25,419 nt of DNA from Acidimicrobiia bacterium (GCA_035462285.1 DATHUL010000041.1:1-25419); one strand, 5' to 3'. Numbered from the stretch's first letter, positions 1 through 22,500 are shown. A program made the numbers and translations. Notes: generated by a model from the letters alone, not told the origin.

Positions 1-96
1 GAAAGGTCCAACCAGCCCAATGTGCGGCAAATGCGTATCAGCGAGAGAGTGACCGCCGGGATCTTGCGCTCGGCGATCGCCGGGGTGCTCGGACAT

Positions 97-127
97 GAAT
101 CGGGCCCCCATGTCGGGGGCCCGATTC
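97..127. terminator. Perfect 13-bp hairpin downstream of the 147..683 gene
   Basis: gaatcgggccccc (97-109) and gggggcccgattc (115-127) are exact reverse complements with a 5-nt loop, about 20 nt past the stop at 147. No U-tract follows on the minus strand. Confidence 0.7.
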
Positions 128-146
128 GATCCGTAGAACGAGTCGA

Positions 147-683: not shown

Positions 684-755
684 TTGATGCCTCCTTCTTC
701 CTACGGGCCAACTGCCTTATGGTGGGAGCATCGGGGTTTGTGAAGGAATGCACGA

Positions 756-810
756 GGGTCATAGGCCCCCTACTGCGAGGGACCTATGACCCCGTTCGTC
801 CGGGACCTTT
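756..810. promoter_or_regulatory. Three phased GGGAC-N4-GNCCC-like boxes (DosR/DevR-like)
   Basis: GGGTCATAGGCCCC (756-769, reverse complement GGGGCCTATGACCC), GGGACCTATGACCC (779-792) and a half-site GGGACCTTT (802-810); starts are exactly 23 bp apart. Confidence 0.55.
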
Positions 811-1583
811 CAGACGCAAGCGCCCCCGTCTTCGCCGCGTCCGCAGAGAGCGGTCATCTCGACGGTCCGGAGAGTGAACCCCCCGCCGTCGCGTTGGCCG
901 AAGACGTGCAGTCGCAGACCTCTGACCGCGTCGTCCCCGAGTCCGATCACGTCATAGGTGACCTCGCCCAGATCTCTGACCTCGGGGGCCGAGGTGAGGA
1001 CGATGTCGGACTCCGGCTCTTCCGACGCCATGCTCTCGGCGACGATCAGTCCCAGTTCGAGCATCGTCGCCGCGCTCGGGGTCTCCCCGAGCGCCTCGAT
1101 GACCGAGGCCGTGACGTCTGTGGTCTCGCCCAGGAAAGCGATGTATCTGTAGTTCACCCATCCTGTGCTGCCCCGGTACTCGACCTCGATCCAGAAGGAG
1201 GTAGAGAGATCCCGGGTGTGCCCCAGGGCGATCAGCGAGTCGTACAAGGGCGGGATCCGCTCCAGGATCCGCTGGTCGGCGCCCGGGGCGGCTCTCAGGT
1301 TGAGCACGTCGTCGTGGGCGACCCCGATCACGGCCACCGTGTCCCCCGCCGCCGGACCGAAGTCGATCCTCTCGCCGGGGAGGGTCCCGGAGATGGTAGT
1401 GGTTGCTCTCCCCGCCCCGCTGGTCGACGTCGTGGTGGTGACGATGGTGGTGCTGGGTTGGGTGGCGCCCGGTGGCGTGGTGCTCGAAACCGGGGACGAG
1501 GTGGTGGTGGACGCCGCTTCACCTCCACAGGCGGCGAGTATCAGTGTCATCGAGGCGGCCCAGAAGGCATGTCGTGATCTCAT
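810..1583 (-). CDS. Lipoprotein with a bacterial SH3 domain and an uncharacterised C-terminal domain, 257 aa
   Basis: Lipobox LAAC after a basic/hydrophobic signal; Thr/Ser-rich linker; SH3b-like segment DVLNLRAAPG...WIEVEYRGSTGWVNYRYI; C-terminal LCGRG...ACV. Confidence 0.85.
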   Translation of the reverse strand: MRSRHAFWAASMTLILAACGGEAASTTTSSPVSSTTPPGATQPSTTIVTTTTSTSGAGRATTTISGTLPGERIDFGPAAGDTVAVIGVAHDDVLNLRAAPGADQRILERIPPLYDSLIALGHTRDLSTSFWIEVEYRGSTGWVNYRYIAFLGETTDVTASVIEALGETPSAATMLELGLIVAESMASEEPESDIVLTSAPEVRDLGEVTYDVIGLGDDAVRGLRLHVFGQRDGGGFTLRTVEMTALCGRGEDGGACV

Positions 1584-1635
1584 CAGGCTCCGATCGAATG
1601 GTGGGTTGTCAACGGTCCGGCCGGTCGAGACGGGT

Positions 1636-2445
1636 TCAAGTGCCGGTGAAGTCAGGCCTGCGCTTCTCCATGAACGCCGCCACCGCCTCCATGAGGTCGT
1701 TGGACATCAGGTACGAGGCATTCCACTGCGCCACGAAGTCGAGTGCCTGTTCCACGGTCCGGCCGTCGTTGGCGGCGAGCACCGTCTTGATCCCTCGAAC
1801 CACCAGCGGGGAGTTGCCGGCGATCTCGGTCGCGACCTCCTTGGCGGCCCCGATGGTGGAGTCCGGATCAGGATGGACCGCGTTGACCAGCCCGATCGCC
1901 ATGGCCCGAACCGCGTCGATGTCCCGCCCGGTCATCGCCAGCTCGGCCGTGTGCCCCGCCCCGACGATGCCGGGGAGCCGCTGTAACGTCCCGACGTCGG
2001 CGACCAGGCCCATCCGGGTCTCCCTTATCGAGAAGATCGCGTCCTCGGAGGCGAGCCGGATGTCACAGGCGGTGATCAGGTCCATACCGGCGCCGAGGCA
2101 ATAGCCGTGAACCACTGCGATCACCGGTTTGGGTGAGTCGGAGAGACAGGTGGCGGTCTCCTGCATCCGTCTGATCAGCCGGTACAGCCTCATGTTGGAC
2201 GACGCCGCCGATTCGCCTGCGGGCTGCATCGAGGCGAGTAGCTCGATGTCGATTCCCACCGTGAAAGCCGGACCTCGCCCCGCCAGGACCACCACCCTCA
2301 CCGAGTCGTCGGCGTCTAGCTCGGCCATGGCCGCCGGGATGTCCTCCCACATGTCCGAGGAGAGGGCGTTCCGCTTCTCGGGACGGTTCAGCCAGAGCGT
2401 GGCGATGTGACCCTGGCGCTCGATCTCGACGTGCTGGTATCCCAC
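1636..2445 (-). CDS. Crotonase/enoyl-CoA hydratase family protein, delta3,5-delta2,4-dienoyl-CoA isomerase-like, 269 aa
   Basis: LNRPEKRNAL, KPVIAVVHGYCLGAGMDL and RETRMGLVADVGTLQRLP. The E...ADVGTLQRL segment is typical of the ECH1/DCI subgroup. Confidence 0.92.
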   Translation of the reverse strand: MGYQHVEIERQGHIATLWLNRPEKRNALSSDMWEDIPAAMAELDADDSVRVVVLAGRGPAFTVGIDIELLASMQPAGESAASSNMRLYRLIRRMQETATCLSDSPKPVIAVVHGYCLGAGMDLITACDIRLASEDAIFSIRETRMGLVADVGTLQRLPGIVGAGHTAELAMTGRDIDAVRAMAIGLVNAVHPDPDSTIGAAKEVATEIAGNSPLVVRGIKTVLAANDGRTVEQALDFVAQWNASYLMSNDLMEAVAAFMEKRRPDFTGT

Positions 2446-2451
2446 GTGGTG

Positions 2452-2457
2452 AGCCTA
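2452..2457 (-). promoter_or_regulatory. -10 element of a leaderless promoter
   Basis: TAGGCT on the minus strand, 6 nt before the GTG at 2445, with no SD. Confidence 0.65.
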
Positions 2458-2513
2458 TCTCCCTGATCGGAGACCCCTCAGGGTCATCGGCGAACCTGCG
2501 TTCGTGACTCCCG

Positions 2514-3725
2514 TCAGGTGCCCGCCGAGCGCCAGGCGTCCCTCAACTTGACCCTGGTCCCGAAGCGGAGCAGACCGCCGGCGTAGATCCTCCCCGCCAC
2601 GAACACCAGCCCCACGATCGCCCCCAGGGTGAGGACGACAGCGAGGACATACTGCCAGGTCGGGATGGAGCCGAGGGCGGCCCGCACCGGCACCACGAAC
2701 GGGGCGGTCAGCGGGATGAGGGTGCCGATCACGGCGGCCGGCCCGTCGGGATCGGAGAGGGCGGTGATCGACACGAAGAACCCGGCGACCGCGATCATCG
2801 ACATGGGAAAGGCCACGTTCTGGGCATCCTCCATCCTGCTCACCAGGGACCCGGCGGCTCCGTACATGACCGCGAAGAGCAGGAAACCCAGGACGAACCA
2901 GACGATCAGATTGGCCACGGTGGCCACGTCGAGGCTGGGGAGCTCGACGACATTCGACACCTGGACCGCGACCACCGCGACCAGGATGGTGCCGGCGAAC
3001 TGCCCGATCCCGAGCAGCCCGATCCCGCTGATCTTCCCGGCGAGCAGCTGCCAGGGCTTGACACTGGAGAGGAGGACCTCGACCACCCGGTTCGATTTCT
3101 CTTCGGTCACGCCGGAGAGCATCCAGTTCCCGTAGAGCAAGACGGCCATGTAGAGCAGCAGTAGCCCTGCATAGGCCACGGCTCCCCGGGTCTCGTCCCC
3201 GGCCTCCGGCCCGGACAGGGTCGTGGTCTGCAACGGATCCGAGGTCATCACCTCGATCACATCGGCTGCGGCCTGTCCCGACTCGGTGACGATCGCCTCC
3301 AGTTCGACCGAGGCCGCCCCCCGCTGCAGCAAGCTGAGCACCGCCGATTCCCCGAACCCGCCCACGCTCTCGACTATCACCTCCTGCCCGTCGATGAGGA
3401 TGGCGTCGAGCTCACCCTCCTCCATGATCGCCTCGGCCGAGGCCCGGTCGTCGAACGGCCGCAGTTCGATCGCCACCGAGGGCTCGGCGTCGGGCTCGTC
3501 TGCGGCATTGCCGAGCAGTTCGGCCGATGCCACGATCGGCTCGTTGCCCTCGCCGACGCCTCCCACCGTGTACTCGGAGGTGCCGCCACCGATCAGACCG
3601 GGGACCACCACCAAACCCGCCACCAGGAGAAAGGTGAGAGCGGTCGTGATCAGAAAGGCCCTGGAACGACCGTGTTCCCGAATCTCACGCACTGCCACCC
3701 GCCACACCGTCTTCAGCGAGCTCAT
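2514..3725 (-). CDS. ABC-2 type exporter permease (NatB/YhaP-like), 403 aa
   Basis: VAVREIRE N-terminus, one TM, a large extracytoplasmic loop, the VTEEKSNRVVEVLLSSV motif, then several TMs. Overlaps the ATPase stop by 4 nt. Confidence 0.93.
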   Translation of the reverse strand: MSSLKTVWRVAVREIREHGRSRAFLITTALTFLLVAGLVVVPGLIGGGTSEYTVGGVGEGNEPIVASAELLGNAADEPDAEPSVAIELRPFDDRASAEAIMEEGELDAILIDGQEVIVESVGGFGESAVLSLLQRGAASVELEAIVTESGQAAADVIEVMTSDPLQTTTLSGPEAGDETRGAVAYAGLLLLYMAVLLYGNWMLSGVTEEKSNRVVEVLLSSVKPWQLLAGKISGIGLLGIGQFAGTILVAVVAVQVSNVVELPSLDVATVANLIVWFVLGFLLFAVMYGAAGSLVSRMEDAQNVAFPMSMIAVAGFFVSITALSDPDGPAAVIGTLIPLTAPFVVPVRAALGSIPTWQYVLAVVLTLGAIVGLVFVAGRIYAGGLLRFGTRVKLRDAWRSAGT

Positions 3726-4609
3726 CGCACCGCCTCCCGGAAGAGGTCGGACAGGGACGGCGTGGTGTAGGTGAAGTGACGCACCCGGCCCACCTCCTGG
3801 GCCCGGGCCAGAAAGCCGCGGATATCGGTGCCGGCGTCGATGATCAGGGTGTGGCTGTGATCCTCGGAGCGGACCTGACGAACATCGCCGAGGGTCTCGA
3901 ACAGATTCCCCACGTCGCCGTCGAGCTCGAGCTCGAGATGACGGATCGGGGCGGCATCCTTCAGCCTTCGAACGTCCCCCTCGACCACGATCCTCCCCGC
4001 GTTGATGATGGCCACCTCCTCGCAGATGTCCTCCACCAGGTCGAGCTGGTGGGAGGAGAACACCACCGCCTTGCCGCTCGCCGTCTGCTCCCGAAGGATC
4101 TCGGCCATGGTCTCGGTGGCGAGAGGATCGAGACCGCTGAACGGCTCGTCGAGAACGAGCAGGTCGGGATCGTGCACCAGCGCCGCCGCCAATTGGACCC
4201 GCTGCTGGTTGCCGTGGGAGAGCACCTCGACCCTATCCAGTCTTCGGTCGGCGAGGCCGAACCGCTCCAGCCACATGTCGGCCGCCGCCGCCGCCTCCTT
4301 CGCCTCCATCCCGCGCAGACGTCCCAGGTAGACCAGTTGGTCATGAGCCTTCATCTTGGGATAGAGACCGCGTTGTTCCGGCATGTAGCCGAACCGGCGC
4401 TTCTGATCGTTGGTGATCGGTTCGCCGTCCCAGGTGACCTGCCCCGAATCGGGGGTGACCAGCCCGAAGATGGTGCGCATGGCGGTGGTCTTGCCCGCAC
4501 CGTTTGGACCGAGGAAACCCAGCATCCGGCCCCGGCCCACCTGGAAGGTGCAGCCAGCGAGGGCGGCCACGTCCGCGTAGCGTTTGTGGAGGTCACTGAG
4601 GGCTAGCAC
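3722..4609 (-). CDS. ABC exporter ATP-binding protein (NatA/YhaQ-like), 295 aa
   Basis: Walker A GPNGAGKTT, signature LSHGNQQRV, Walker B LLVLDEP, H-loop SSH; GTG start. Confidence 0.95.
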   Translation of the reverse strand: MLALSDLHKRYADVAALAGCTFQVGRGRMLGFLGPNGAGKTTAMRTIFGLVTPDSGQVTWDGEPITNDQKRRFGYMPEQRGLYPKMKAHDQLVYLGRLRGMEAKEAAAAADMWLERFGLADRRLDRVEVLSHGNQQRVQLAAALVHDPDLLVLDEPFSGLDPLATETMAEILREQTASGKAVVFSSHQLDLVEDICEEVAIINAGRIVVEGDVRRLKDAAPIRHLELELDGDVGNLFETLGDVRQVRSEDHSHTLIIDAGTDIRGFLARAQEVGRVRHFTYTTPSLSDLFREAVR

Positions 4610-4640
4610 GAACCCGGGAGGATAGGTGCCCGGTCAGGGA

Positions 4641-4672
4641 GTGGCGACACGCCCCCCCGGTAGCATCGCCAC
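4641..4672. promoter_or_regulatory. Divergent promoter region with an inverted repeat overlapping a -10 element
   Basis: gtggcga (4641-4647) and tcgccac (4666-4672) are inverted. TAGCAT (4661-4666) lies 8 nt before ATG 4675. TATCCT on the minus strand lies 9 nt before GTG 4609. Confidence 0.5.
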
Positions 4673-4674
4673 GA

Positions 4675-7248
4675 ATGCGACTCCTGGAACGTGACGACGT
4701 CCTAGAGCACCTCGACCACCTCCTCTCGGCGGCAAGGCAGGGCAACGGGCGCGCGGTTCTGGTGCGGGGCGAGGCCGGGATCGGGAAGACGTCGGCGGTG
4801 CGCCTCTTCACCCGGTCTCATCTCGACGACGCCCACGTGCTCTGGGGCGGTTGCGACGATCTTCTCACCGCCCGTCCCCTCGGCCCGATCTGGGACATGG
4901 CGCTCGACGAGCCGACGCTGGGAGAGGCGCTGCGAGGCCAGGATCGGCACGAGGTCTTCGCCCTCCTCTTCGAGTTGGTGGCGAGGGTGTTGCGACCGAC
5001 GATCATGGTGATCGAGGACATCCATTGGGCCGATGAGGCGACGCTCGACCTGGTCAAGTACCTGGGGAGGCGAATCGACCGTACCCACGGGCTTCTGGTC
5101 CTCACCTATCGCGACGGCGAAGTGCCGGGTGACCGTCCTCTGCGTGTCGCCCTGGCAGATGTCGCTGCCTCGGTGCTGGATCGGATAACCCTGCCCCCAT
5201 TATCGGAGTCGGCCGTGTCCGAGATGGCGACGGCGGCAGGGGGTTCCTCAGACGGCTTGTGGGAGATCTCCGCAGGAAACCCGTTCTTCCTCACCGAGCT
5301 GCTCGCCTCGGACCGCGAGTCGGTCCCGGTCTCGATACGAGATGCGGTCATGGCCCGGGTCGCCCGACTCTCACCCGGGGCGCGCTCACTGGTCGATCTG
5401 GTGGCCGTGGTGCCGAGCCGGGCCGAGCTCGACCTGGTCTCGGCCGTCCTCGGGCCATCGGACCGGGCAGTCGCCGAGAGCGAGGCTGCCGGGGTGCTCC
5501 AGCTCGAGGAGGATGCCCTCTCCTTCCGACACGAGCTGGCCCGCCGCTCGGTCGAGTCCGATCTTCCCGAGATCAGGAGACGCGAGCTGAATCTCCTGGT
5601 GCTGCGGGCGGTCGAGAGTCTCGGCTACGACCTCGCCCGCGCGGCGCACCATGCCCGGATGGGGGGCCACGTCGACTCGCTCCTCCGACTCGCCCCGCTC
5701 GCCGCCCGCCGCGCCGCCGAGATGGAGAGTCACAGCGAGGCGGTCGCCCATCTTCGCACGCTCGAGCCCTATTTGGACCGGCTCGATGCCGAGATGTGCG
5801 CCGACCATTACGATCTGTGGGCCTACGAGGAGTATCTCGGCAACGAGAACACCCGGGCCGAGGAGATCATCGAGACCGGCATCTCGTTCCGGCGGAGGTT
5901 GGGCGATCCGGCCAAGCTGGGCAACTCTCTTCTCATTGCGAGCCGGATCGCCTGGGTGCGCAACCGCCGAGCCTCGGCCGTGGAACTGGCCAACGAGGCT
6001 GCCACCGTGCTCGAGGCGGTAGGCGGCCACGATCTCGCCTTCGCCTACTCGACCATCTCCCAACTGGCGATGCTGGCCAGTGATGAGGAGCGCACTCTGG
6101 AGTATGCCGACAAGGCGATGGCTACCGCGGGCGATGGGCCGAGTGAGGCACGAGCCCATGCCCTCAACAACATCGGTGCGGTCAAGATGGGCTCTCGATT
6201 CCCGGAGGGGATGGAGGAAGTGGAGCAGAGCTTCGCCATGTCGGCGCAGCTCGGGTTCTCTCATGAGCAGATGCGGGCCGCGGTCAACATCGGTTGGTCG
6301 GCCCTGTGCTTCCGGGAGTTGGACACCGCCGCGACCTGGGTGGCTCGTGCCCATGATCTGGCGATGGATCGCGAGATCGCCAGCTTCGAGGCCTACGCCG
6401 TGGTCGCCCGCGGTCTGATCTCTGAGATGCGGGGGGATTGGGCCGATGCCGAGGCCAACGCGGTGTATGTGTTGGAGAACTTGGAGCTGGCGACAGCGAG
6501 AATGGTGGCAAATTCGTTGCTGGGCCGGCTCCAGGCCCGGACCGGTCACCCGGAAGCGAAGAACCATCTCCTCGAGGGCTGGGAGCCTGCGCTTCAAACC
6601 GGTGAGATACAGCGGACCGCCCCGGCCGGGAGCAGCATGGCCGAGTTCGTCTGGATAGGCGGCGCCCTCGATCGGGACATCTTTCCCCGGCTCCGCGAGG
6701 TCCTGGCCGAGTCGTTGCAGCGCGATCCGACCTGGCGGGGGGGTGAGTTGGCCTTCTGGCTCCACATGATCGGCGAGATCGACCAGCCGCCACCCGGAGT
6801 GGCCGAGCCCTACCGTCTCGCCATGGAGGGGGAATGGGAGAAGGTGGCCTCGTTCTGGGCGGAGCGAGGCATGCCCTACGACCGGGCGGTTGCGCTCAGC
6901 CAGGGCAGCACCGAGGCCAAGCTGGAGGGGCTCACCATCTTCGACGAACTGGGCGCCGCGCCGCTCGCCTCGCGACTCCGCTCTGAGCTGGCCGCTGCCG
7001 GCGTGAGCGGGGTGCCGCGGGGGCCGACCCGGGCTACCAGGGAGAACCCATTCGGTCTCACCCCCCGGCAGATGGACGTGCTCGGGCACATGGCCGGGGG
7101 CATGACCAACGCCGAGATCGCAGACCGCCTCTTTGTCTCGAGCCGGACGGTGGATCATCACGTCTCGGCGATCCTGGGCAAGCTGGGCGCTTCCACTCGC
7201 GCCGAGGCCGTGGTCATCGGTCGTGATGCAGGTCTCTTCGATAGGTGA
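4675..7248 (+). CDS. Large ATP-binding LuxR-family regulator (AAA/STAND ATPase, TPR-like region, C-terminal LuxR HTH), 857 aa
   Basis: Walker A GEAGIGKT, IEDIHWADEATLDL, helical repeat-like middle region, C-terminal LTPRQMDVL...TNAEIADRLFVSSRTVDHHVSAILGKLG. Confidence 0.95.
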   Translation: MRLLERDDVLEHLDHLLSAARQGNGRAVLVRGEAGIGKTSAVRLFTRSHLDDAHVLWGGCDDLLTARPLGPIWDMALDEPTLGEALRGQDRHEVFALLFELVARVLRPTIMVIEDIHWADEATLDLVKYLGRRIDRTHGLLVLTYRDGEVPGDRPLRVALADVAASVLDRITLPPLSESAVSEMATAAGGSSDGLWEISAGNPFFLTELLASDRESVPVSIRDAVMARVARLSPGARSLVDLVAVVPSRAELDLVSAVLGPSDRAVAESEAAGVLQLEEDALSFRHELARRSVESDLPEIRRRELNLLVLRAVESLGYDLARAAHHARMGGHVDSLLRLAPLAARRAAEMESHSEAVAHLRTLEPYLDRLDAEMCADHYDLWAYEEYLGNENTRAEEIIETGISFRRRLGDPAKLGNSLLIASRIAWVRNRRASAVELANEAATVLEAVGGHDLAFAYSTISQLAMLASDEERTLEYADKAMATAGDGPSEARAHALNNIGAVKMGSRFPEGMEEVEQSFAMSAQLGFSHEQMRAAVNIGWSALCFRELDTAATWVARAHDLAMDREIASFEAYAVVARGLISEMRGDWADAEANAVYVLENLELATARMVANSLLGRLQARTGHPEAKNHLLEGWEPALQTGEIQRTAPAGSSMAEFVWIGGALDRDIFPRLREVLAESLQRDPTWRGGELAFWLHMIGEIDQPPPGVAEPYRLAMEGEWEKVASFWAERGMPYDRAVALSQGSTEAKLEGLTIFDELGAAPLASRLRSELAAAGVSGVPRGPTRATRENPFGLTPRQMDVLGHMAGGMTNAEIADRLFVSSRTVDHHVSAILGKLGASTRAEAVVIGRDAGLFDR

Positions 7249-7370
7249 TTCCCGCCCGATATAGGCAGGACCCCCGCTCCCATCTAGGCAGTCATCACCG
7301 ATTCGCCCTCGGGCTCTCTCCCATACCTTGGCCAATGTCACCGAAGAGCCAAGACGAAGGAGAGAACCTC

Positions 7371-7535
7371 ATGATGCACAGCCCCGAATACACCAATGCG
7401 ATCCTTGCCGAGCGGCAGCGTCATGTCCGGGACCTGAGAAAGGTCCACGAGGCCAGGCGGGCCAGGAGCGAGGCGAGGAGAGCCAACCCACGCCGCAGGC
7501 GGATCCTCCGTCTTCGCCACCCCGTCAGAGTCTGA
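7371..7535 (+). CDS. Small Arg-rich hypothetical protein, 54 aa
   Basis: SD GAAGGAG at 7356-7362, 8 nt before the ATG; mostly G/C third codon positions; fills the gap between the LuxR gene and the convergent HD gene; candidate -10 TACCTT at 7324-7329. Confidence 0.7.
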   Translation: MMHSPEYTNAILAERQRHVRDLRKVHEARRARSEARRANPRRRRILRLRHPVRV

Positions 7536-7547
7536 GTCGGCCAGCGC

Positions 7548-8549
7548 TCAGTCGAGGAGCCCGGGCCGAAACAGCCGGTCGTGGGTGTGCAGGGCAAACC
7601 GGTCGGTCATGCCGGCCACGTAGTCGATGGCACGGTCCAGGGGCTCGGCGCCCGGCGTGGTGGCCGAGTCGGGCACATCGAGAGGACGATCGGTGAACCA
7701 TCGGACCAGATCCTGGATGACGTTGATCGCCTTCTGCTTCTGGCTCTCGCTCTCCGGGCTGAGGTAGACCCTTTCGAACATGAAGTTCCTCAGCTCTTCC
7801 ATGACCTCGAGATGATGGAGGTCCATCTCCACCTCTCCCGCCCGGTGACTGGCCTCGATGACCGCGGTCGCCAGAGACCCGATCCACTCGCGTGAGGTGG
7901 CCCCGAACGTGGTCAGGGCCCGGGTCGGGATCTCGTGGTACTGGAGGACGTTGGCCCGTAGGGCGTCGGCCACGTCGTGGGTGAGATAGGCGATCCGATC
8001 GGCGAACCGGCAAAGCCGGCCCTCCGGGGTCGCGGGTGGCGGATCGATCCGCCAGGAGTGGGCCCGTATCCCGTCCAGGACCTCGGCACTCAGGTTTTGA
8101 GGCTCGATCGAGGACAGGGTGCGCACACCATGAGCAGAGTGGAGCCAGTTGCCCTCGACGAACGGGGACAACGCCTCCTCCCCGGTGTGCCCGAACGGGG
8201 AGTGGCCCACGTCGTGACCGAGGCAGATAGCCTCGGTCAGGTCCTCATTGAGACCGAGGGCCCTGGCCATGGCTCGCCCGACCTGGTTCACCTGGATGGT
8301 ATGGGTCATTCGGGTGACGAAATGGTCTCCGTCGGGGTTGAGGAACACCTGGGTCTTGTGCTTGAGCCGTCGGAACGCCTTGCTGTGGACGATGCGGTCG
8401 CGGTCCCGTTCGAAGGCGGTGCGGAACTCGTCGTGCTCCTCTTCTTCGGCCCTTCCCATCGACTGGTCCGCTTTCGTCGCCGCCGGCGCCAGCAGCTCGT
8501 GCTCCAGCCGCTCCCGGTCCTGGCGGCCCCGTCTCAGCATCCCGTCCAT
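7548..8549 (-). CDS. dgt: HD-domain deoxyguanosinetriphosphate triphosphohydrolase-like protein (short dGTPase), 333 aa
   Basis: FRTAFERDRDRIVHSKAFRRLKHKTQVF, TRMTH, GHDVGHSPFGHTGE, ADRIAYLTHD, DYVAGMTD. Start placed at ATG 8549, 8 nt after TAGCCT. The longer 9470 start in the track overlaps phnE. Confidence 0.92.
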   Translation of the reverse strand: MDGMLRRGRQDRERLEHELLAPAATKADQSMGRAEEEEHDEFRTAFERDRDRIVHSKAFRRLKHKTQVFLNPDGDHFVTRMTHTIQVNQVGRAMARALGLNEDLTEAICLGHDVGHSPFGHTGEEALSPFVEGNWLHSAHGVRTLSSIEPQNLSAEVLDGIRAHSWRIDPPPATPEGRLCRFADRIAYLTHDVADALRANVLQYHEIPTRALTTFGATSREWIGSLATAVIEASHRAGEVEMDLHHLEVMEELRNFMFERVYLSPESESQKQKAINVIQDLVRWFTDRPLDVPDSATTPGAEPLDRAIDYVAGMTDRFALHTHDRLFRPGLLD

Positions 8550-8623
8550 GAAGACCAAGGCTAGAGGGCCATCCCTGCCCGGCTCGCCGTGGTCGAGACC
8601 ATGGCCTTTGCGGGCTGGGGCCC

Positions 8624-10525
8624 CTAGACGAACCGCTCGCGGAGTCTGGAGCTGGCCCAGTCCATCGTTGCCACCACTATGGCGATGGCGAGCATCTGGG
8701 CGGCCGCGGCCCGGTAGTTGAGGAGCCCGATGTTCTGCTGGAGGAGGAATCCGATCCCGCCACCGCCGACGAAGCCGATGATGGTGGAGAACCTGACGTT
8801 GATGTCCCAGCGATACATCGTGAAGGAGATGTAGGGAGCGACGATCTGAGGGACGACGGCATAGACCACGGTCTGGAGTCGGGTGGCACCGGTGGCCCGG
8901 ACCGCTTCGACCGGACCGGCGTTTATGCTCTCCACCTGCTCCGAGTAGAGCTTGGCGTTGGCGGCGATGGTGTGCAGGGCCAGGGCGAGGGCGCCGGCGA
9001 AGGGGCCGAGACCGACCCAGATGACGAAGACCAGGGCGAGGACCAGCGCCTCGATTGAACGGAGCGCGTTGAACACGGTTCGGGCCGTGTAGTACACGGC
9101 GAGGCCGATCCCGATCGGCCCCCGTTGTGAGGAGCGCCAGGCCAGGACCGCCCCGAGCACCGCACCCACGACCGCCGGGATGACCACGGTGCTCTGTCTG
9201 TCCACGATCTGGTAGAGCCAGGCCACCACCTGTCCCACGGCCATGGCGAGGAGCGCCCCGGCCAAGGCGCCGGCGAGGATCGAGAGCGCCCGGTTCAGCC
9301 CGCCGCTGACCCGACGTCCCAGCCGGTATCCGAACCGGCTGCCCAGATAGGCGAGGACCCCGGCCAGGCCGATCGCGGCGAACGCATCGAAGGCCGCTCC
9401 CAGGATCTGCCCCAGCAACACCACGAACTGGCCGATGAAGTCGAACACGCCGAGTCGTGCCGCCGCCCATGCTCCTCCGATCTGGGAGAAGCGGACCAGG
9501 GCCTGGGCGGCGATCAGACCGACCAGGGCGGCTGCGATTCCCGCCCCGATGCGAGCGGTCCGGGTGACGTTCGAGCCCGGCACCGGGACCGCGATCGGGA
9601 TCAGCCTGGCCACCACGGCTCCGGCCGCCAACGCCACCGCGGCCTGCAACAAGGCAGAGTCGGGGAGGGTCTCGATGAGACGGCGGGACTCCCTCGAGAC
9701 GAGCAGGCCGATGTAGAGCCCTATCGGGATGCCGGCGATGGCGAGACCGAGTTGCAGCGCCGGCATCCGCACGTCACGCATCAGGTTGCGAGCGGCGAAG
9801 AAGGAGAGGGGGATGGCGATCAGCGTCCCCAGCGTGGTGGCGAGGAGGGCGAGGAACACCGTCTCGATGATCAGGTCGAGAGTCTGCACCGCGTTCTCCG
9901 ACCAGCGTGGGGAGCGAAGCATCTCGCCGTTCTCTCCCTCCACATAGACCGGGCTGAAGATGGAGCCCGCGTTGAGCCGGCTCTTCACCCGGACTGTCTG
10001 GATCTCGGTGTCCGGTCGGTTGGAGAGACGGGCGTCGACCTGGAACGAGCCTTCGGGGTCGGTCCGGACATTGGCCAACCTGAGCTCGGTCCCGTTGGGC
10101 GGGACGAAGAACACCTGGACGTTGTCGTTGGCCCTGAATCCCGACCCGGTGATGGTCACCACCTCCCGGGGCTCGGCACAGGGCGGGTCGACGGTGAAAA
10201 TGGCCTCACCTTGCACTGGCTCGGCTTCGAAGCCACCGGCAGGGCATGGGATCATGTAGTCGAGGTCGATGTCGGTCGACTCGACCTCGTAGGTGATGAG
10301 ATCGGGCTGGGCCAGAGCGCGGATGACCCGGAACAACTGCGTCTGCCGGGTCTCGTCGGTGATCTTGTCCAGGCTGACCTCGGTCACCTGGAATCCATAG
10401 GCATAGATGACGAATCCGGCCAGGAGGCCCAGGAAGATCCACAGACTCCTCAGCCGACGGCGCTTGGGCGGCTGTTCTGAGATTCCCGGCTCAGTCTCCT
10501 CGGCCGAGGTGTCGAGGTCAGCCAA
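8624..10525 (-). CDS. phnE: Phosphonate/phosphate-type ABC importer permease (PhnE family) with two large insertions, 633 aa
   Basis: ETVFLALLATTLG..IAIPLSFFAARN, then RSIEALVLAL..VGLGPFAGALAL..AKLYSEQVESIN.GPVEAVRATGA and YRWDINVRFSTIIGFVGGGGIG. Confidence 0.9.
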   Translation of the reverse strand: MADLDTSAEETEPGISEQPPKRRRLRSLWIFLGLLAGFVIYAYGFQVTEVSLDKITDETRQTQLFRVIRALAQPDLITYEVESTDIDLDYMIPCPAGGFEAEPVQGEAIFTVDPPCAEPREVVTITGSGFRANDNVQVFFVPPNGTELRLANVRTDPEGSFQVDARLSNRPDTEIQTVRVKSRLNAGSIFSPVYVEGENGEMLRSPRWSENAVQTLDLIIETVFLALLATTLGTLIAIPLSFFAARNLMRDVRMPALQLGLAIAGIPIGLYIGLLVSRESRRLIETLPDSALLQAAVALAAGAVVARLIPIAVPVPGSNVTRTARIGAGIAAALVGLIAAQALVRFSQIGGAWAAARLGVFDFIGQFVVLLGQILGAAFDAFAAIGLAGVLAYLGSRFGYRLGRRVSGGLNRALSILAGALAGALLAMAVGQVVAWLYQIVDRQSTVVIPAVVGAVLGAVLAWRSSQRGPIGIGLAVYYTARTVFNALRSIEALVLALVFVIWVGLGPFAGALALALHTIAANAKLYSEQVESINAGPVEAVRATGATRLQTVVYAVVPQIVAPYISFTMYRWDINVRFSTIIGFVGGGGIGFLLQQNIGLLNYRAAAAQMLAIAIVVATMDWASSRLRERFV

Positions 10526-11270
10526 CCCTTTCCGCCTCCTGCCCGTAGATGTCCTTGAACATGGCGTCGTCGATCTCCGAGGGCAGACCCTCGAAGACGA
10601 GACGTCCCTCGTTCAGCGCGATCACCCGCTGCCCGTAGCGATGGACCAGGTCGAGGAAATGGAGACTGCACAACACGGTGACCCCGTCGGAGCGATTGAT
10701 GTCCTCCAGGTACTGCATGATGGAGTGGGCCAGGACCGGGTCCAGGCTGGCCACCGGCTCGTCGGCCAGGATCATCTCCGGATCCTGCATCATGGCCCGG
10801 GCGATCCCCACCCGTTGCTGCTGGCCCCCGCTCAGTTCCTCGGTGCGGTTCTGTTCTTTTCCCTCCAGCCCGAAACGGGCCAGCTGTGCCAGGGCTCGCT
10901 CACGGTCGCTCCGGGAGAACCGATTGGCCAGGGCCAGGGCGGGGCTGGTGTAGCCGAGTCTGCCGGCGAGCACGTTGGTGATCACCCTGGATCGGTGCAC
11001 AAGGTTGAAGTTCTGGAACACCATGCCGATCCGGCGCCGGATGCGTCGCATCTCCTCCTCGGAGGCGGCGGTGATGTCCTCCCCCTTCCACACGATCCGG
11101 CCCTCGGTCGGATCGATGAGACGATTGATGCAGCGGAGCAAGGTCGACTTGCCCGACCCGGACAGACCGATGATGGCCAGGAACTGGCCCTCGGCGACCT
11201 CGAAGGAAACGTCGCGCAGCGCGACCGTCCCGTCGTCGTAGACCTTGGTCAGGTTCTCAACCTGGAGCAT
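10518..11270 (-). CDS. phnC: Phosphonate-type ABC importer ATP-binding protein, 250 aa
   Basis: Walker [46 protein letters not shown] just before ATG 11270. Confidence 0.93.
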
Positions 11271-11290
11271 TTGCCTCCGAGGGGAGTGTA

Positions 11291-11316
11291 GGAGGGGGCG
11301 CCTTGGCGCCCCCTCC
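11291..11316. terminator. Intercistronic stem-loop between phnD and phnC
   Basis: ggagggggcgcc-tt-ggcgccccctcc is a perfect 12-bp inverted repeat. This position is typical of mRNA-stabilising hairpins after binding-protein genes. Confidence 0.7.
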
Positions 11317-11333
11317 AATCGAACGGTGTCGGC

Positions 11334-12458
11334 CTAGAGGTCTTCCAGATCGATCCCGGCCGTGTCGACGACCTTGCGCAGTTCGTCGTACTCGGCGTCG
11401 GTGGCCGGCTCGATACCGGTCCATCCATAGAAGTCCTGGTTACCGATGGAGTCGTTCCAGGCACAGTCGTCGTTGTCTTCGCACTCGGCGGCGAAGGCCA
11501 ACAGCGCCTCCTCGATCTGTGCCCGCAACTCGGCAGGGAAGTCGGGGCCGAAAGACAGGGTGTCGTTCGGGATCTCAGGCGAGATGGCGAGGATCCGGAC
11601 CTGCTGCACGATGTCCGGGGCTTCCTCGGTGGCGCTGGCTCGCGCATCAAGCACCCGGAAGTTCTCCCCGCAGAACAGGTCGCCTTCCTCGTTCGGGGCG
11701 CACGAGTCCACCAGGTCCTCGGGGACGTCGGGCTCGTCGCCGATCTGCCAGGGGTCACCTTCGAGGATCAGCGGCGGGCTGAAGAAGGTGGTTGCGAAGT
11801 CGGCGTCGCCCCGGTAGACGGCGAGGGCGGCATTGGGGTGGCCACCGGTCTCCACCGGCTCACCGGCGGTCACGCCCGCCTCCTCCAACTGGACCAGCGG
11901 GACCAGGTAACCGGAGGTCGAGTTCACATCGGGGAACGCCCACGACAGTCCGTCCAGGTCTTCGATGCTGGCGATTTCACTGTCTCTGGGCACCAGGATC
12001 TGGGCCCAGTACACGCCGTATCCGAAGCGGACCGCCTTGAAGGCGACGTCGACACCGCACAGGTTGTTGGCCAGCACGTATCCGAATCCGGGGATGAAGC
12101 CCATCGTGTCCTCGGGTGCGGCGCACATCTCCTCGATGGTGGCGGCGTACGACGTCGGGACGCTGACCTCGAAACTGAGACCGGTGGCCTCTTCGAGTGC
12201 GGCCTTCATCACATCACCACCCGAGACGATCACCTGTGCGTCGACCGAAGGCACGAACAGGACCTGAATCGGTCTGTCCGGTGACCCCAATTCCGCTTCT
12301 GCCATCGCGGTGCTCGTCGTCTCCTCGGGTGCTGCCGTAGTGGTTGTCTCCTCGGCTCCTGCGGTCGTCGTGGAGTCCTCGCCACCCTCGCCGCCGCCAC
12401 AGGCGGCCACGATCAGCGAAAGCACGACGAGACAAGCCCAGAGGGCTCTCTTCTGCAT
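11334..12458 (-). CDS. phnD: PhnD/PtxB-family phosphate/phosphite/phosphonate-binding lipoprotein, 374 aa
   Basis: Lipobox VAAC, Thr-rich linker, VPTSYAATIEEM, DVNSTSGYLVP, GGH, IPND motifs; SD GGAGA; candidate -10 TAGGGT at 12512-12517 (minus). Confidence 0.92.
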   Translation of the reverse strand: MQKRALWACLVVLSLIVAACGGGEGGEDSTTTAGAEETTTTAAPEETTSTAMAEAELGSPDRPIQVLFVPSVDAQVIVSGGDVMKAALEEATGLSFEVSVPTSYAATIEEMCAAPEDTMGFIPGFGYVLANNLCGVDVAFKAVRFGYGVYWAQILVPRDSEIASIEDLDGLSWAFPDVNSTSGYLVPLVQLEEAGVTAGEPVETGGHPNAALAVYRGDADFATTFFSPPLILEGDPWQIGDEPDVPEDLVDSCAPNEEGDLFCGENFRVLDARASATEEAPDIVQQVRILAISPEIPNDTLSFGPDFPAELRAQIEEALLAFAAECEDNDDCAWNDSIGNQDFYGWTGIEPATDAEYDELRKVVDTAGIDLEDL

Positions 12459-12533
12459 GTTCTCTCCTATTTGTTCTCCATGATCGCGATGACCCCGGAT
12501 CGCGTGTCGCGACCCTAATCGGGCAGTGGGCGG

Positions 12534-13082
12534 TCATTCCACCGAGTCGATCAGGACGCGAAACTCGTCGAAGTCGGCGACGTCCACCGCCCCGGCCACC
12601 GGCGTGTTCCAGGGCCGGACATAGCGACAGACGAGACGATCGGGCCGGTGTGCGACCAGATCCGGCAGGATGCGTGGCCCATCGTCGAGGTAGACGTCAC
12701 AGTCGATCCGCCATTTGTCTTCGAGGATGTGGATCTCCTTGGTCGGGATCTGGTGGGCCGCGATCCACTCGTGGGTGTCGGCGATGGCGAAGTTGGGTTT
12801 GGTGGTGAGGATCACTATCTGATGACCCTCGGCGTCCAGCTCGCGTAGCGCCTCGACGGCGCCGGGGAAGGTCTCCAGGTGCCAGAACAGTGATCGCCCG
12901 TCGAGATCGGACGACCATCGCCAGAAGGCGCCCATGTCCTCGAAGTGGGTCATGGTGGTCAGCCCGTCCCAGGCGACGACCAGGTCGGGCTCGAGATCGG
13001 CATCGAAGTCCCGGTTGTAGAAGTCGACCCAGCCCTTGGTGAAGTCGGCGACCACGCCGTCGAGATCGATGCCGAGCCTCAT
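12534..13082 (-). CDS. 5'(3')-deoxyribonucleotidase (NT5C-like, HAD superfamily), 182 aa
   Basis: IDLDGVVADF motif I, ILTTKP motif II, K...DVYLDDGP motifs III/IV; PGAVEALREL; no signal peptide. Confidence 0.85.
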   Translation of the reverse strand: MRLGIDLDGVVADFTKGWVDFYNRDFDADLEPDLVVAWDGLTTMTHFEDMGAFWRWSSDLDGRSLFWHLETFPGAVEALRELDAEGHQIVILTTKPNFAIADTHEWIAAHQIPTKEIHILEDKWRIDCDVYLDDGPRILPDLVAHRPDRLVCRYVRPWNTPVAGAVDVADFDEFRVLIDSVE

Positions 13083-13095
13083 CGGCGACCCGGGT

Positions 13096-13764
13096 TCACT
13101 CGGAGTCGATCGCCTTCGACTTCTTGTAGAAGTCCAGCCGGTCCACCGGCATCACCAGCGAGGTGAGCAGGTTGGAGAGGTGGGCGGAGATTCGCTTGAT
13201 GTAGCGATAGAGGATGGCCCGGGGAGCGGCGAAGGTCCCGGGCTGGTCCGAGCGTATGAACTCGGCCATGAGATCGTCGTAGTGCTTCTCGTCGTTCTCG
13301 ATCTCGGGGATGAGCTGGTGCACCGCGCTCTCCTTCTGGTCCCGGAACACCTCGGTGGTGATCACGACCAACTCGGCCACCCGGCGGAAGTGCTCCTGGA
13401 TCTCGGCCTGGTCAGGGCCGGCGGAGAAGTCGACTCCCAGATCGGCCAGGTTCCACAGGTTCTTGCAGTAGTCGCCCACTCTCTCCACGTCCTTGGCAAC
13501 CGACATGTAGGCCAGCATCAACCCGTAATCGACCTCCGCCCCCCACACCGAGCCATGGACCAACAGCTCGCGTCTGATCTCCCGCTCGGTCCGGTTCAGC
13601 TCTTTGTCCAGGGCGAAGATCTCGTCGGCGACCGCGGCCGGATCCGAGGTCCGCATCAGCGCGCCCACGGCCAGCTCGAACATGCGGGAGCAGGTCTCCA
13701 GCATGCCCACCAGCTGGGTCTCGACGTTTTCCAGTTGTTGGGCGTCCCGGAACAGGGAGAACAT
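13096..13764 (-). CDS. PhoU-domain protein, 222 aa
   Basis: Two helical repeats: DKELNRTEREIRR...KDVERVGDYCKNL and DEKHYDDL...RYIKRISAHLSNL. SD GAGGAG. Confidence 0.85.
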   Translation of the reverse strand: MFSLFRDAQQLENVETQLVGMLETCSRMFELAVGALMRTSDPAAVADEIFALDKELNRTEREIRRELLVHGSVWGAEVDYGLMLAYMSVAKDVERVGDYCKNLWNLADLGVDFSAGPDQAEIQEHFRRVAELVVITTEVFRDQKESAVHQLIPEIENDEKHYDDLMAEFIRSDQPGTFAAPRAILYRYIKRISAHLSNLLTSLVMPVDRLDFYKKSKAIDSE

Positions 13765-13774
13765 GGGCTACTCC

Positions 13775-14938
13775 TCAGGTGATGAACAATATGACGATGG
13801 GGAGGACAAAGAACATGCCGATGATGTAGACCGCGATCAGACCACGTCTTCGTGCCCCGACCTCCGCGGCCCATTCTGCGATCGCAACCGGTGTCCGCCT
13901 CAGTATCGGGATCGGGTAGAAGATCAGGATTCCGAGCAGGTTGAAGGTGGTGTGGGCGATGGCCACCACGAAGGCGTCCGGGTTGTCGGCCGCCACCGAC
14001 GCCAGCAATGCGGTGATCGTCGTCCCGACATTGGCACCGAGCGCCACCGGGTAGACGGTGGTGATGGTGAGGACGCCGGCTGCGGCCAGCGGCACCAGCA
14101 TCGAGGTGGTGATGCTCGAGCTCTGCACCGCCACGGTGAGGAGGAGCCCGATCAGCATCGCCCCCGCTCCGGCCCCCTTGCCCAGGATCCGGTTGATCGC
14201 CGCTTCGATCTGCCCCGATACCACCCATCGCATCTGAGTGGTGACCTGCCATAGCGAGAGAAATATGAGGGCGACGCCAAATCCGATCAGGATGCTGCCC
14301 GCCGCCCGTTCCCATCCAAGGCTCTCGAGGGCCCCGCTGATCGCATCGACCGGGCTCTCGATGGCGCGCTTGACCGGGCCGGGGTCGTCGCTCACTCCCG
14401 GGAGGAGCCCGTCGAACAGGGAGGCCATTGCGATGGCGATCCGGCTCACCGCTCCGAACAGCACTTCCAGCGGGAAGAGGGCGATGACGGCGAGGATGTT
14501 GAAGTAGTCGTGAACTGTGGCGGCGGCGAAAGCGCGGCGAAAGAAGGCATTCTGACGAACGTGCCCGAGGGCGGCGAGCGTCCCGGTGATGGTGGTCCCG
14601 ATGTTCGCCCCCATCACCATCGGCACTGCCGTCTCGATGCCGAGCACGCCGGCGCCGACCAGACCCACGATGGTCGAGGTCGTCACCGACGACGACTGGA
14701 CCAGCACGGTGGCCAGGACTCCGGCGGCGAGCCCGGCCAGCGGGTGGGCGACGGTGGCGAACACGTCCTCGACGAATCCGGCACCGAGGGCGCCGATTCC
14801 TCTCTCCAGCGCCTTGATCCCGACCAGGAACACATAGAGGAAGAGGACTGCGAGAAGAAGCCGGGCCCAGGTTCCGAAGTGTGGCGACGGGGGTTTGGAC
14901 TCGGGCGCGACCCGTTCTCTCGGCCGATGATCTCCCAT
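13775..14938 (-). CDS. Na+/Pi cotransporter (NptA/SLC34-like), membrane part only, 387 aa
   Basis: Two QSSS repeats (VQSSSVTTS, VQSSSITTS), each followed by GANIGTT or GANVGTT. Start placed at ATG 14938, 10 nt after TACCCT. Confidence 0.93.
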   Translation of the reverse strand: MGDHRPRERVAPESKPPSPHFGTWARLLLAVLFLYVFLVGIKALERGIGALGAGFVEDVFATVAHPLAGLAAGVLATVLVQSSSVTTSTIVGLVGAGVLGIETAVPMVMGANIGTTITGTLAALGHVRQNAFFRRAFAAATVHDYFNILAVIALFPLEVLFGAVSRIAIAMASLFDGLLPGVSDDPGPVKRAIESPVDAISGALESLGWERAAGSILIGFGVALIFLSLWQVTTQMRWVVSGQIEAAINRILGKGAGAGAMLIGLLLTVAVQSSSITTSMLVPLAAAGVLTITTVYPVALGANVGTTITALLASVAADNPDAFVVAIAHTTFNLLGILIFYPIPILRRTPVAIAEWAAEVGARRRGLIAVYIIGMFFVLPIVILFIT

Positions 14939-15045
14939 GGGCCGACGCAGGGTAAGACCGAGCCGTCGCCTCCTGCATCTCGGTACCGCCGATCGGCATT
15001 CGAAGCCGGGCCGGATCTGGTGAATGTTCAGGTGCCGGTGTCCGT

Positions 15046-15079
15046 GTTCAAATCGCTTGAGCATTCAGTCGATTTGAAC
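15046..15079. promoter_or_regulatory. Palindromic operator upstream of the winged-helix regulator
   Basis: gttcaaatcg (15046-15055) and cgatttgaac (15070-15079) form a perfect 10-bp inverted repeat with a 14-nt spacer, ending 12 nt before ATG 15092, in a locally AT-richer patch. Confidence 0.7.
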
Positions 15080-15091
15080 TAAACCTCCGCC

Positions 15092-15670
15092 ATGGCGCAG
15101 GCAACGACATTCGAGATCGAAGACGTTCGGGTCCTGGAGGCTCTCAACAACCCGACCAGACTACGGATCCTCTACCAACTCATGGAGGCGTCGACCGCTG
15201 GTGAGCTCGCTCGGCGTCTCGATGTCCCGGTCACCCGTCTCTACTACCACCTGAACCTGTTGCAGGACCTGGGAGTCGTGGAGGTGGTCGAGACCCGGAA
15301 GCGGGGGGCGATGCTGGAGCGGGTCTACCGCGCAGTCGCCACCAACTTCGTTCCCGCCCGGGATCTCATCGAGAAGGCCACGGACAAGGACAGGGTGATC
15401 AGCGCCGGGGTGGGTGTGGTTCTCGACGGGGCCCGGCTCGACGCAATGGCCGGTCTGCTCGGGCATTTGCAGAGCCCGGGAACGGACCCAACCGGGACGT
15501 TGGGCCGATGCGTCATCCCGATGAGCGAGGTGAACGCCTCGAAGTTCACCGAGCGGATCGGGGAGATCGTCGAGGAGATGAAACTCCTCGAGGACAAGGA
15601 CGGAGAGGAGTACGCCTTCTCATTCGTCTTCTTCCCCATGGTCGGCCCGGTGAAGGGAGAGAAGCTGTGA
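15092..15670 (+). CDS. Winged helix-turn-helix (ArsR/HTH_20-like) transcriptional regulator, 192 aa
   Basis: ALNNPTRLRILYQL...TAGELARRLDVPVTRLYYHLNLLQDLGVVEVVETR...ERVYRA. Confidence 0.9.
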   Translation: MAQATTFEIEDVRVLEALNNPTRLRILYQLMEASTAGELARRLDVPVTRLYYHLNLLQDLGVVEVVETRKRGAMLERVYRAVATNFVPARDLIEKATDKDRVISAGVGVVLDGARLDAMAGLLGHLQSPGTDPTGTLGRCVIPMSEVNASKFTERIGEIVEEMKLLEDKDGEEYAFSFVFFPMVGPVKGEKL

Positions 15671-20732: not shown

Positions 20733-22457
<1,725 letters not shown>

Positions 22458-22459
22458 CC

Positions 22460-22485: not shown

Positions 22486-22500
22486 CTACCGTGGGCGACG

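Follow-up and report, generated by a model that had tools for sequence, protein, structure and literature searches.

Phosphonate-type (Phn) importers in genomes that lack carbon-phosphorus (C-P) cleavage are a recognised puzzle of phosphorus cycling, the known cases being Mycobacterium smegmatis and the marine picocyanobacteria. In these organisms, the PhnDCE and PhnD1CE importers are found without C-P cleavage genes but together with PstSCAB, and neither of the two publications concerned mentions NT5C or dgt partners (PMC2797804, PMC10284923). Here, we analyzed a stretch of DNA of 25,419 nucleotides (nt) from an Acidimicrobiia bacterium (GCA_035462285.1, DATHUL010000041.1), hereafter the window, in which such an importer is encoded between an NT5C-type nucleotide phosphatase and Dgt, a deoxynucleoside triphosphate (dNTP) triphosphohydrolase. 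The window is an entire 25.4-kb contig of a metagenome-assembled genome (MAG) of 1.89 Mb (69% complete), and its DNA was seen again in soil metagenomes. The genes NT5C, phnD, phnC, phnE and dgt belong to known families standing in an undescribed and widely conserved combination; the arrangement recurs in dozens of genomes, far beyond chance. No description of this operon was found in the literature on phnD in Acidimicrobiia or on the enzyme pair with phosphate starvation. Such importers are thereby tied, in several actinobacterial classes and often by an overlap of start with stop codon, to enzymes that break down deoxynucleotides, which offers a new and testable clue to the puzzle.

Like PhnCDE of Escherichia coli (TC 3.A.1.9; PhnD structure 3P7I), the importer in the window is a three-component ATP-binding cassette (ABC) system, and its PhnC and PhnE pass the corresponding NCBIfam equivalogs. 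In contrast to the E. coli system, it has no linkage to C-P lyase (which was not found), is preceded by NT5C and ends with dgt; about 60 additional amino acids (aa) are inserted in its PhnD, which is a lipoprotein, and its 633-aa PhnE carries an immunoglobulin (Ig)-like domain and additional transmembrane (TM) segments. It differs from the M. smegmatis and picocyanobacterial importers in that the annotated part of the window showed no phnF-type regulator and no PHO box accompanies the genes, and its PhnD has Asp where PhnD1 has a capping tyrosine. This tyrosine has also been lost in GpxB, the binding protein of the glycerol-1-phosphate/glycerol-3-phosphate importer GpxBACD (PMC12718374); at the tail-binding positions, however, GpxB has Arg223/Thr247 and the window PhnD has Asp/Asp. 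No hydrolase partners are described for GpxBACD. Among the enzymes, mammalian SAMHD1 and cdN/mdN belong to the same two families as Dgt and NT5C, whose genes are adjacent or flank a ribonucleotide reductase (RNR) in some lineages. Unlike the mammalian pair, the genes studied here are bacterial and lie at one locus around an ABC importer, and we infer their joint role in pool control.

Conservation of the NT5C-phnDCE-dgt unit

A first-pass annotation of the window, made from its sequence, had described seven consecutive minus-strand genes as one phosphorus cluster. Profile searches established that all seven are real and lie at the coordinates claimed (see the table below): a split NptA-type Na/Pi transporter (NaPi; Pi, inorganic phosphate), a PhoU-domain protein, NT5C, phnD, phnC, the long phnE and dgt, in this order on the minus strand. 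Gene starts were refined by orthologue alignments and junction sequences. The intergenic gaps measure 10 nt (NaPi/PhoU), 13 nt (PhoU/NT5C), 75 nt (NT5C/phnD), 63 nt (phnD/phnC) and about 75 nt (phnE/dgt), and the coding sequences of phnC and phnE share 8 nt.

Among 401 genomes searched within the class, PhnD orthologues (46-95% identity, termed type A) were detected in 57, which represent seven families of a single order, and the window proteins were mapped onto all 57 loci. NT5C was located upstream of phnD in 51 of them, and dgt followed phnE in every one of the 51 loci that reached far enough, once at a distance of 3.7 kb. In 27 of 49 loci, the start of dgt fell between -8 and +15 nt from the phnE stop, most commonly in the form of TGATG, GTGA or ATGA overlaps; the terminal gene is often translationally coupled to phnE. 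By comparison, NaPi and PhoU precede NT5C in only seven type-A loci, all in the window's family, and in one locus of a second cassette type. The conserved unit is NT5C, phnD-phnC-phnE(-phnE)-dgt, and NaPi-PhoU is a family-level add-on outside this core; the cluster as first annotated therefore stands for its five-gene part and not for the two genes at its upstream end.

The second cassette type (type B) occupies the place between the same two genes, in the same order, and comprises a PhnD that is 21-25% identical to that of the window, a PhnC of about 45% identity and two separate PhnE genes. Its flanking genes are far closer to their window counterparts (NT5C, 63-66% identical; Dgt, 55-78%), and cassettes of both types occur within single genera (g2, g3). 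NT5C and Dgt are single-copy and occur only at this locus. In a sample of 111 genomes of the order, NT5C was found in 80, and in 60 of these a PF12974 (PhnD-family) gene comes immediately after it; this tally was cross-read by hand and includes genome G406, without which it reads 59 of 79. NT5C has been relocated in one genus, where phnDCE and dgt are still together.

The same operon was found beyond the order. In a phylum-wide sample of 401 genomes, NT5C was present in only 41, with two subtypes distinguishable: type 1 (identity to the window protein of 47% or more) and the canonical type 2 (25-34%). Outside the order, type-1 NT5C occurred in 13 genomes, which belong to another Acidimicrobiia order, to Nitriliruptoraceae (an assignment that rests on close homologues) and to two further families. 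All 13 carry phnD-phnC-phnE-phnE downstream on the same strand, adjacent to NT5C in ten genomes and at 1.9-4 kb in three. The next gene after the second phnE is dgt in five of these loci, three of them with a GTGA or ATGA overlap, and a type-2 NT5C in two (PF06941, 123 bits), where the GTG start codon overlaps the phnE stop; the other six loci end at contig ends or at the limits of the fetched stretch. Elsewhere, type-2 NT5C shows no linkage to phn genes. Apart from generic ABC ATPases, the flanks vary between the out-of-order lineages.

Taken together, NT5C and the HD-domain Dgt recur across the clade of this PhnD and long PhnE, around another type of cassette and in other actinobacterial classes, and the block very probably represents one operon type found across Actinomycetota. 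The strict association of NT5C subtype and transporter, the different genomic contexts, the start/stop overlaps and the exchange of the last gene for one whose unrelated product acts on the same substrate class argue strongly for a functional unit rather than mere inherited order. That the genes have simply stayed together, with no functional link, because the chromosome is stable in the region of dnaX and recR is very unlikely. This explanation draws on the finding that almost every locus of the order has dnaX and recR upstream of NT5C, no more than 6 kb away (in the window, at 20733-23417, they are 6-8 kb from the block), on the slot between NT5C and Dgt, which may hold an RNR gene or nothing, and on the separate candidate promoters in this genus. 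It is contradicted by the identical arrangement in Nitriliruptoraceae and two further families with other flanks and no dnaX nearby, by phnE/dgt overlaps in many lineages, by the exchange of the cassette while the flanking genes were kept and by the linkage of all 13 out-of-order type-1 NT5C genes to a phn cassette. As the main reading of the locus, shared chromosomal background is thus largely refuted by the out-of-order loci, which hold the same operon in different flanks. Overall, the functional tie between importer and hydrolases proposed in the first-pass annotation is well supported, whereas the import of intact nucleotides, which it also proposed, is still something that we infer.

Some loci show further variation. 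At L033/L010 (G348:C21), a type-A phnD is split into two overlapping pieces and phnE is fragmented, while NT5C and Dgt look intact; the fragments suggest frameshifts, either of a decaying cassette or from long-read assembly errors. Eight loci (L120-L124, L127, L131, L132) have a 630-aa RNR and no phn cassette, in one genus with a DUF2330 protein and a cupredoxin alongside. Genomes with the phn cassette have only a distant RNR of about 1000-1180 aa, encoded elsewhere.

A possible route for imported phosphoesters

Our tentative reading of the operon is that it serves the import of a phosphoester, with deoxynucleoside monophosphates (dNMPs) as leading candidate, followed by dephosphorylation by NT5C in the cytoplasm and draining of dNTP overflow by Dgt. 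The lipoprotein PhnD would bind an extracellular ligand whose head group is of the phosphate type. This ligand, in all likelihood a phosphoester and perhaps a dNMP released from environmental DNA, would be imported intact through PhnC and PhnE. Type-1 NT5C would then strip the phosphate, yielding Pi and a (deoxy)nucleoside. Molecules phosphorylated on to dNTPs would be hydrolysed by Dgt (or by the second NT5C paralogue in one lineage), a step that would keep uptake from unbalancing the dNTP pool, and the locus would be expressed outside the PHO-box control of the pstS type.

Both enzymes of this scheme are predicted to be cytoplasmic, in agreement with the first-pass annotation: an N-terminal hydrophobic stretch is absent from NT5C and Dgt, and in NT5C motif I of the HAD phosphatases (DxDGV) already begins at residue 6 (DLDGV, residues 6-10). 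The NT5C-family enzymes of solved structure are deoxyribonucleotidases, and the nearest of them to the window protein are the human 5'(3')-deoxyribonucleotidases mdN and cdN (E about 1e-6). The window NT5C belongs to a divergent subtype, 25-34% identical to the canonical actinobacterial paralogues, and is a predicted deoxynucleotidase. Dgt contains the HD (PF01966, 54.8 bits) and HD_assoc (PF13286, 57.3 bits) domains and matches PDB entry 2DQB over its full length (residues 8-326, E 1e-57). Its score against the NF002327 equivalog (366.6; 381.6 for the orthologue at L073) is just under the cut-off of 393, so its substrate range is not assured. It is the sole TIGR01353 gene in the MAG (G000) and in four near-complete relatives (G007, G058, G134 and G110).

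Genes for phosphonate catabolism were sought in the window and in whole genomes. No C-P lyase, phnX or phnW is present within the window, as noted in the first-pass annotation (ptxD was not searched for). Neither the MAG nor any of five near-complete relatives yielded PhnJ, and PhnX, PhnW, the PhnZ-type HD protein (TIGR03276) and the PhnA hydrolase were likewise not found above cut-off in five to six genomes, the MAG included. Since none of the C-P cleavage pathways searched for was found, the annotation "phosphonate transport" overstates these genes. PstS is encoded in 92 of the 111 order genomes. Several near-complete genomes with the phn block (G142, G130, G170, G122 and others) gave no PstS match at E 1e-15, and in PstS-negative genomes such as G142 phosphorus may enter through no ABC-type importer other than the Phn system.

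The promoters of pstS allowed a comparison with the phosphate-starvation response. In 20 of 20 order genomes, a PHO box, GTTCACCnnnnGTTCACC, was identified upstream of pstS (19-37 bits). It consists of two GTTCACC direct repeats 11 nt apart, located 86-151 nt before the start codon and followed by a TAC(G/C)TT-like -10 element (L092-L111), and these 20 sites provide a ready position weight matrix (PWM) for the Pho regulon of a little-studied order. Scanning the phn loci (57 type-A loci, 810 kb) with this matrix returned no site of at least 14 bits, and the best scores upstream of NT5C, phnD and NaPi were at the level of random positions; the sole match in the window (14.3 bits at 14495) lies inside the coding sequence of NaPi. 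With no box in the phn loci of the order genomes, the phn locus is placed outside the PHO-box control seen at pstS, and membership of the Pho regulon was rejected on the basis of the scan.

Four observations lead us to favour phosphoester import: type-1 NT5C stands beside one kind of transporter in all out-of-order carriers examined, the terminal gene always encodes a deoxynucleotide hydrolase, phosphonate catabolism was not found, and the starvation box of pstS is absent from the locus. An enzyme subtype that is always encoded beside one kind of transporter usually acts on the imported substrate. The PhnT family moreover already includes a phosphoester binder, GpxB, which binds the 1- and 3-phosphates of glycerol (PMC12718374). 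If nucleotides or other phosphoesters are imported, the substrate range of the family would be wider than described and monoderm bacteria would have a route to phosphorus from environmental DNA. The narrower proposal, namely dedicated uptake of dNMPs or related nucleotide phosphoesters on a phosphonate-type importer, with Pi release by NT5C and with Dgt or the second NT5C as a safeguard of the dNTP pool, we regard as rather doubtful; if true, soil and saline Actinomycetota would have private access to environmental-DNA phosphorus through a substrate class new to the family.

The PhnD pocket and competing substrates

PhnD carries the lipobox VAAC, a Thr/Glu-rich linker and the insertion mentioned above; compared with the solved small-ligand PhnD proteins, insertions of 50-60 aa are present in PhnD of both cassette types, at different positions. 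By sequence, it is nearest to PtxB, HtxB and AioX (E 1e-12 to 1e-7), and its match to entry 9LF9, which from title and date we take to be GpxB, is very weak (E 0.0016). The best 120 PhnD homologues retrieved through a word index were all close relatives. An AlphaFold2 model (predicted local distance difference test score, pLDDT, 95.8) matched apo PtxB (Z 25.8, root-mean-square deviation (rmsd) 2.3 Å, 254 residues aligned), HtxB (Z 22.1), the open form of E. coli PhnD (Z 21.6, rmsd 3.0 Å, 253 residues aligned) and XAC2383 (5UB7, deposited with ATP bound; Z 20.2, rmsd 4.8 Å, 252 residues aligned). The profile of E. coli-type phosphonate-specific PhnD (TIGR03431) scored 90.8 against a cut-off of 261.1, and no phnG-M genes are linked.

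The head-group contacts of E. coli PhnD (reference sequence from NC_000913), Y47, Y93, S127-T128-S129 and H157, are identical in 52 type-A and 15 type-B sequences. The capping tyrosine (Te_PtxB Y208; PhnD1 Y204/Y206), which closes a small pocket and limits the ligands of PtxB and PhnD1 to phosphite, Pi or methylphosphonate (PMC5700983, PMC10284923), is replaced in the window PhnD by Asp, as in E. coli PhnD; in the window protein this Asp is part of an IPND motif. Loss of this tyrosine together with a changed tail-binding pair accompanies a move to larger ligands, namely 2-aminoethylphosphonate in E. coli PhnD and glycerol phosphates in GpxB (PMC12718374). With the capping tyrosine absent and insertions present, the pocket argues against a pure phosphite- or Pi-type binder.

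Other features of the pocket and locus weigh against the import of nucleotides. The amino-binding pair of E. coli PhnD, E177 and D205, is kept as the Asp of a DAR motif and the Asp of IPND, respectively, each at least 90% conserved in the 52 type-A and 15 type-B sequences, so that all contacts to 2-aminoethylphosphonate are retained or conservatively replaced (PMC5700983, PMC12718374). Judged from these residues, a nucleotide would fit the pocket less well than a small ligand that has a cationic tail. We know of no PhnD-family importer that carries nucleotides. Phn importers without catabolic genes take up Pi in M. smegmatis (PMC2797804) and have been argued to do so in picocyanobacteria (PMC10284923), and E. 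coli PhnCDE also takes up Pi (PMC6469041). The cassette is missing altogether in G023 and G028, where NT5C abuts Dgt, and the 630-aa RNR, encoded on the opposite strand, separates NT5C from Dgt in a genus of family f61 as well as in two further genomes. In one family, moreover, the dnaX stop is only 2-18 nt from the NT5C start (L058, 9724-11472), and NT5C may there be co-transcribed with this replication gene. Because the two genes are adjacent without the cassette, flank an RNR gene and include an NT5C abutted by dnaX, NT5C and Dgt would serve the internal dNTP pool independently of the importer. Finally, phnD and dgt have candidate promoters of their own in this genus.

Several of these points favour the main rival reading, a small ligand: PhnDCE would import Pi, phosphite or another small phosphorus compound, and NT5C and Dgt would act only on dNMPs and dNTPs of the cell itself. 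By their co-expression, the supply of phosphorus would be linked to DNA-precursor control or phosphate recycling, with no relation of substrate and product between importer and enzymes. The Pi uptake by Phn systems cited above, the importer-independent NT5C-Dgt pairs beside dnaX or around RNR genes, the status of Dgt as the genome's only dNTPase, the recruitment of Pi-handling NaPi-PhoU beside both type-A and type-B cassettes and pocket residues that are those of a small-ligand binder are all consistent with this explanation, which we consider possible but somewhat unlikely. It gives no clear reason why the NT5C subtype accompanies the phn cassette in 13 of 13 out-of-order carriers, nor why the gene coupled to phnE should encode a deoxynucleotide hydrolase of either of two unrelated folds. 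The logic of phosphate starvation is also not visible, with PHO boxes at pstS and none at the phn loci, and PhnD is without the capping tyrosine of PtxB and PhnD1 (PMC5700983). Should Pi be carried nonetheless, the operon points to an undescribed coupling of phosphorus supply to control of the dNTP pool.

The conserved acidic pair, the full set of head-group contacts and the exchange of the capping tyrosine for Asp would also fit import of an amino-organophosphorus compound, such as 2-aminoethylphosphonate, aminomethylphosphonate, phosphoethanolamine or phosphocholine, with Dgt as an operon passenger. An ester would be hydrolysed by type-1 NT5C acting as phosphatase, and a phosphonate by a C-P cleavage route not yet known. 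This is improbable: PhnJ, PhnX, PhnW, PhnZ and PhnA were not found in the five to six genomes searched, the coupling of dgt and its replacement by canonical NT5C would be left unexplained, and the solved structures of the NT5C family are of deoxyribonucleotidases. As far as the residues can be read, the pocket alone does not separate an amino-organophosphorus ligand from a nucleotide.

Features of the window and neighbouring genes

The positions of the seven genes and of the elements between them are collected in the table. TANNNT elements in front of the conserved genes may mark separate starts of transcription within the block. As the first-pass annotation had noted, phnD and dgt each have a -10 element, both of which are candidates. 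An element of this kind is found at the same position in most orthologous NT5C-phnD spacers; a phnE-dgt spacer is present in 21 orthologous loci and contains TANNNT 6-10 nt ahead of the dgt start in eight of them. The same motif occurs 5-11 nt before the NT5C start codon in 32 of 49 loci, compared with 1.9% of random start-like positions, and is best read as a leaderless-promoter signature. The window NT5C, 13 nt past PhoU, has no -10 element of its own, and in this genome NaPi-PhoU probably supplies the NT5C transcript. A search for sigma-70 consensus promoters returned none in 7200-15300 (0.9 expected), the consensus being ill-suited to a high-GC actinobacterium; terminator-like matches were at most about 1.7 standard deviations over the shuffled mean, with none after dgt.

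Table. Genes and sequence elements of the phn locus, with positions counted from the first nucleotide of the window
Feature	Position	Strand	Evidence and remarks
Dgt, TT1383-type dNTP triphosphohydrolase, 333 aa	7548..8549	-	TIGR01353 178 vs 152.35
Candidate -10 TAGCCT for dgt	8558..8563	-	8 nt before ATG; leaderless-type arrangement
Long PhnE permease, 633 aa	8624..10525	-	TIGR01097 224.5 vs 216.7
PhnC ABC ATPase, 250 aa	10518..11270	-	TIGR02315 equivalog 327.1 vs 266.1; ATG at 11270, Shine-Dalgarno GGAGG before
GC hairpin, perfect 12 bp, no T run	11291..11316	-	Between phnD and phnC; from sequence
PhnD type A lipoprotein, 374 aa	11334..12458	-	PF12974 146.9 bits vs 27; TIGR01098 143.5 vs 112
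Shine-Dalgarno AGGAGAG of phnD	12462-12468	-	Downstream of leader hairpin
phnD 5' leader hairpin GCGAT, 8-nt loop, ATCGC	12486..12503	-	Read from sequence
Candidate -10 TAGGGT for phnD	12512..12517	-	Directly 3' of NT5C stop; prediction
NT5C type-1 HAD phosphatase, 182 aa, cytoplasmic (predicted)	12534..13082	-	PF06941 93.2 bits vs 24.8
PhoU-domain protein, 222 aa	13096..13764	-	PF01895 50.6 bits; 10 nt past NaPi stop
NptA-type Na/Pi cotransporter, 387 aa	13775..14938	-	PF02690 116 bits; NF037997 109 bits vs cut-off 50
Inverted TTCAA/TTGAA repeats	15046..15079 (region 15019-15090)	.	Spacer between divergent ArsR gene and NaPi

Leader hairpins similar to that of phnD (GCGA...TCGC) were seen in the same-genus loci L017, L022 and L033. 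A riboswitch or other known RNA was considered for this leader and rejected, as no Rfam match reached the gathering score anywhere in the window. The position of the second hairpin, after the gene of the binding protein, suggests an mRNA-stabilising element within the operon rather than a terminator.

By hydropathy, PhnE comprises an N-terminal TM helix, an extracytoplasmic domain (residues ~44-211), about 10 more TM segments and the PhnE core (413-632). The extracytoplasmic domain of about 170 aa was modelled as an all-beta Ig-like sandwich (pLDDT 79) with two invariant cysteines. The Foldseek matches, to Ig-like, adhesin or macroglobulin structures, were all weak (E at least 0.006), and a nuclease or phosphatase role of the domain was rejected, given the Ig-like model and no match to a catalytic fold. 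A third cassette variant (L090) has two PhnE genes with the N-terminal domain on each. Of the more distant PhnD representatives, most were on short contigs or had no DNA, and the informative loci (L112, L114 and L116) showed no NT5C or Dgt. One of these, L112 (GCA_022616275.1 contig, 61-6909), from an unrelated MAG, contains phnD, phnC, two phnE genes (620 aa and 514 aa) and another phnD. Glycosyltransferase genes rather than Dgt come after this cassette, and the upstream side is the contig end. The 620-aa phnE of this MAG, with no Dgt after it, indicates that oversized PhnE is not confined to the NT5C/dgt operon.

The NaPi and PhoU genes upstream of the conserved unit are an ordinary NptA-PhoU module split in two. 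The start of NaPi at 14938 agrees with orthologue alignments, which begin at residue 42 of a longer open reading frame. The PhoU-domain protein scored 54.1 against the canonical PhoU profile (TIGR02135, cut-off 130.25), while its single PhoU domain passes Pfam, and an NptA-associated PhoU clade appears to be a better fit than canonical PhoU. Most NptA transporters have a PhoU domain at their C-terminus, which acts as accessory regulator of the transporter itself (PMC13170248). The pair resembles NptA (Staphylococcus aureus NptA; E. coli YjbB-like) in its Na_Pi_cotrans domains followed by a PhoU domain, but differs in that PhoU is a separate gene 10 nt downstream and in being a variable neighbour of a phn block.

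An ArsR-family (HTH_20) gene at 15092-15670 on the plus strand diverges from NaPi across the repeat-containing spacer. A TTGAATGTTCAAGCGATTTGAA-like motif adjoins the ArsR gene in loci L022, L027, L033, L046, L047, L053, L055 and L057, whatever gene lies opposite (NaPi or NT5C), and the TTCAA/TTGAA repeats probably serve as the operator through which ArsR controls the ABC-2 exporter genes downstream. On the other side of the block, an 857-aa STAND/LuxR-type regulator (AAA_16 and GerE; 4675-7248) converges on the 3' end of dgt, and is found at this position only in the close relatives L005, L017 and L018 and as a fragment in L015.

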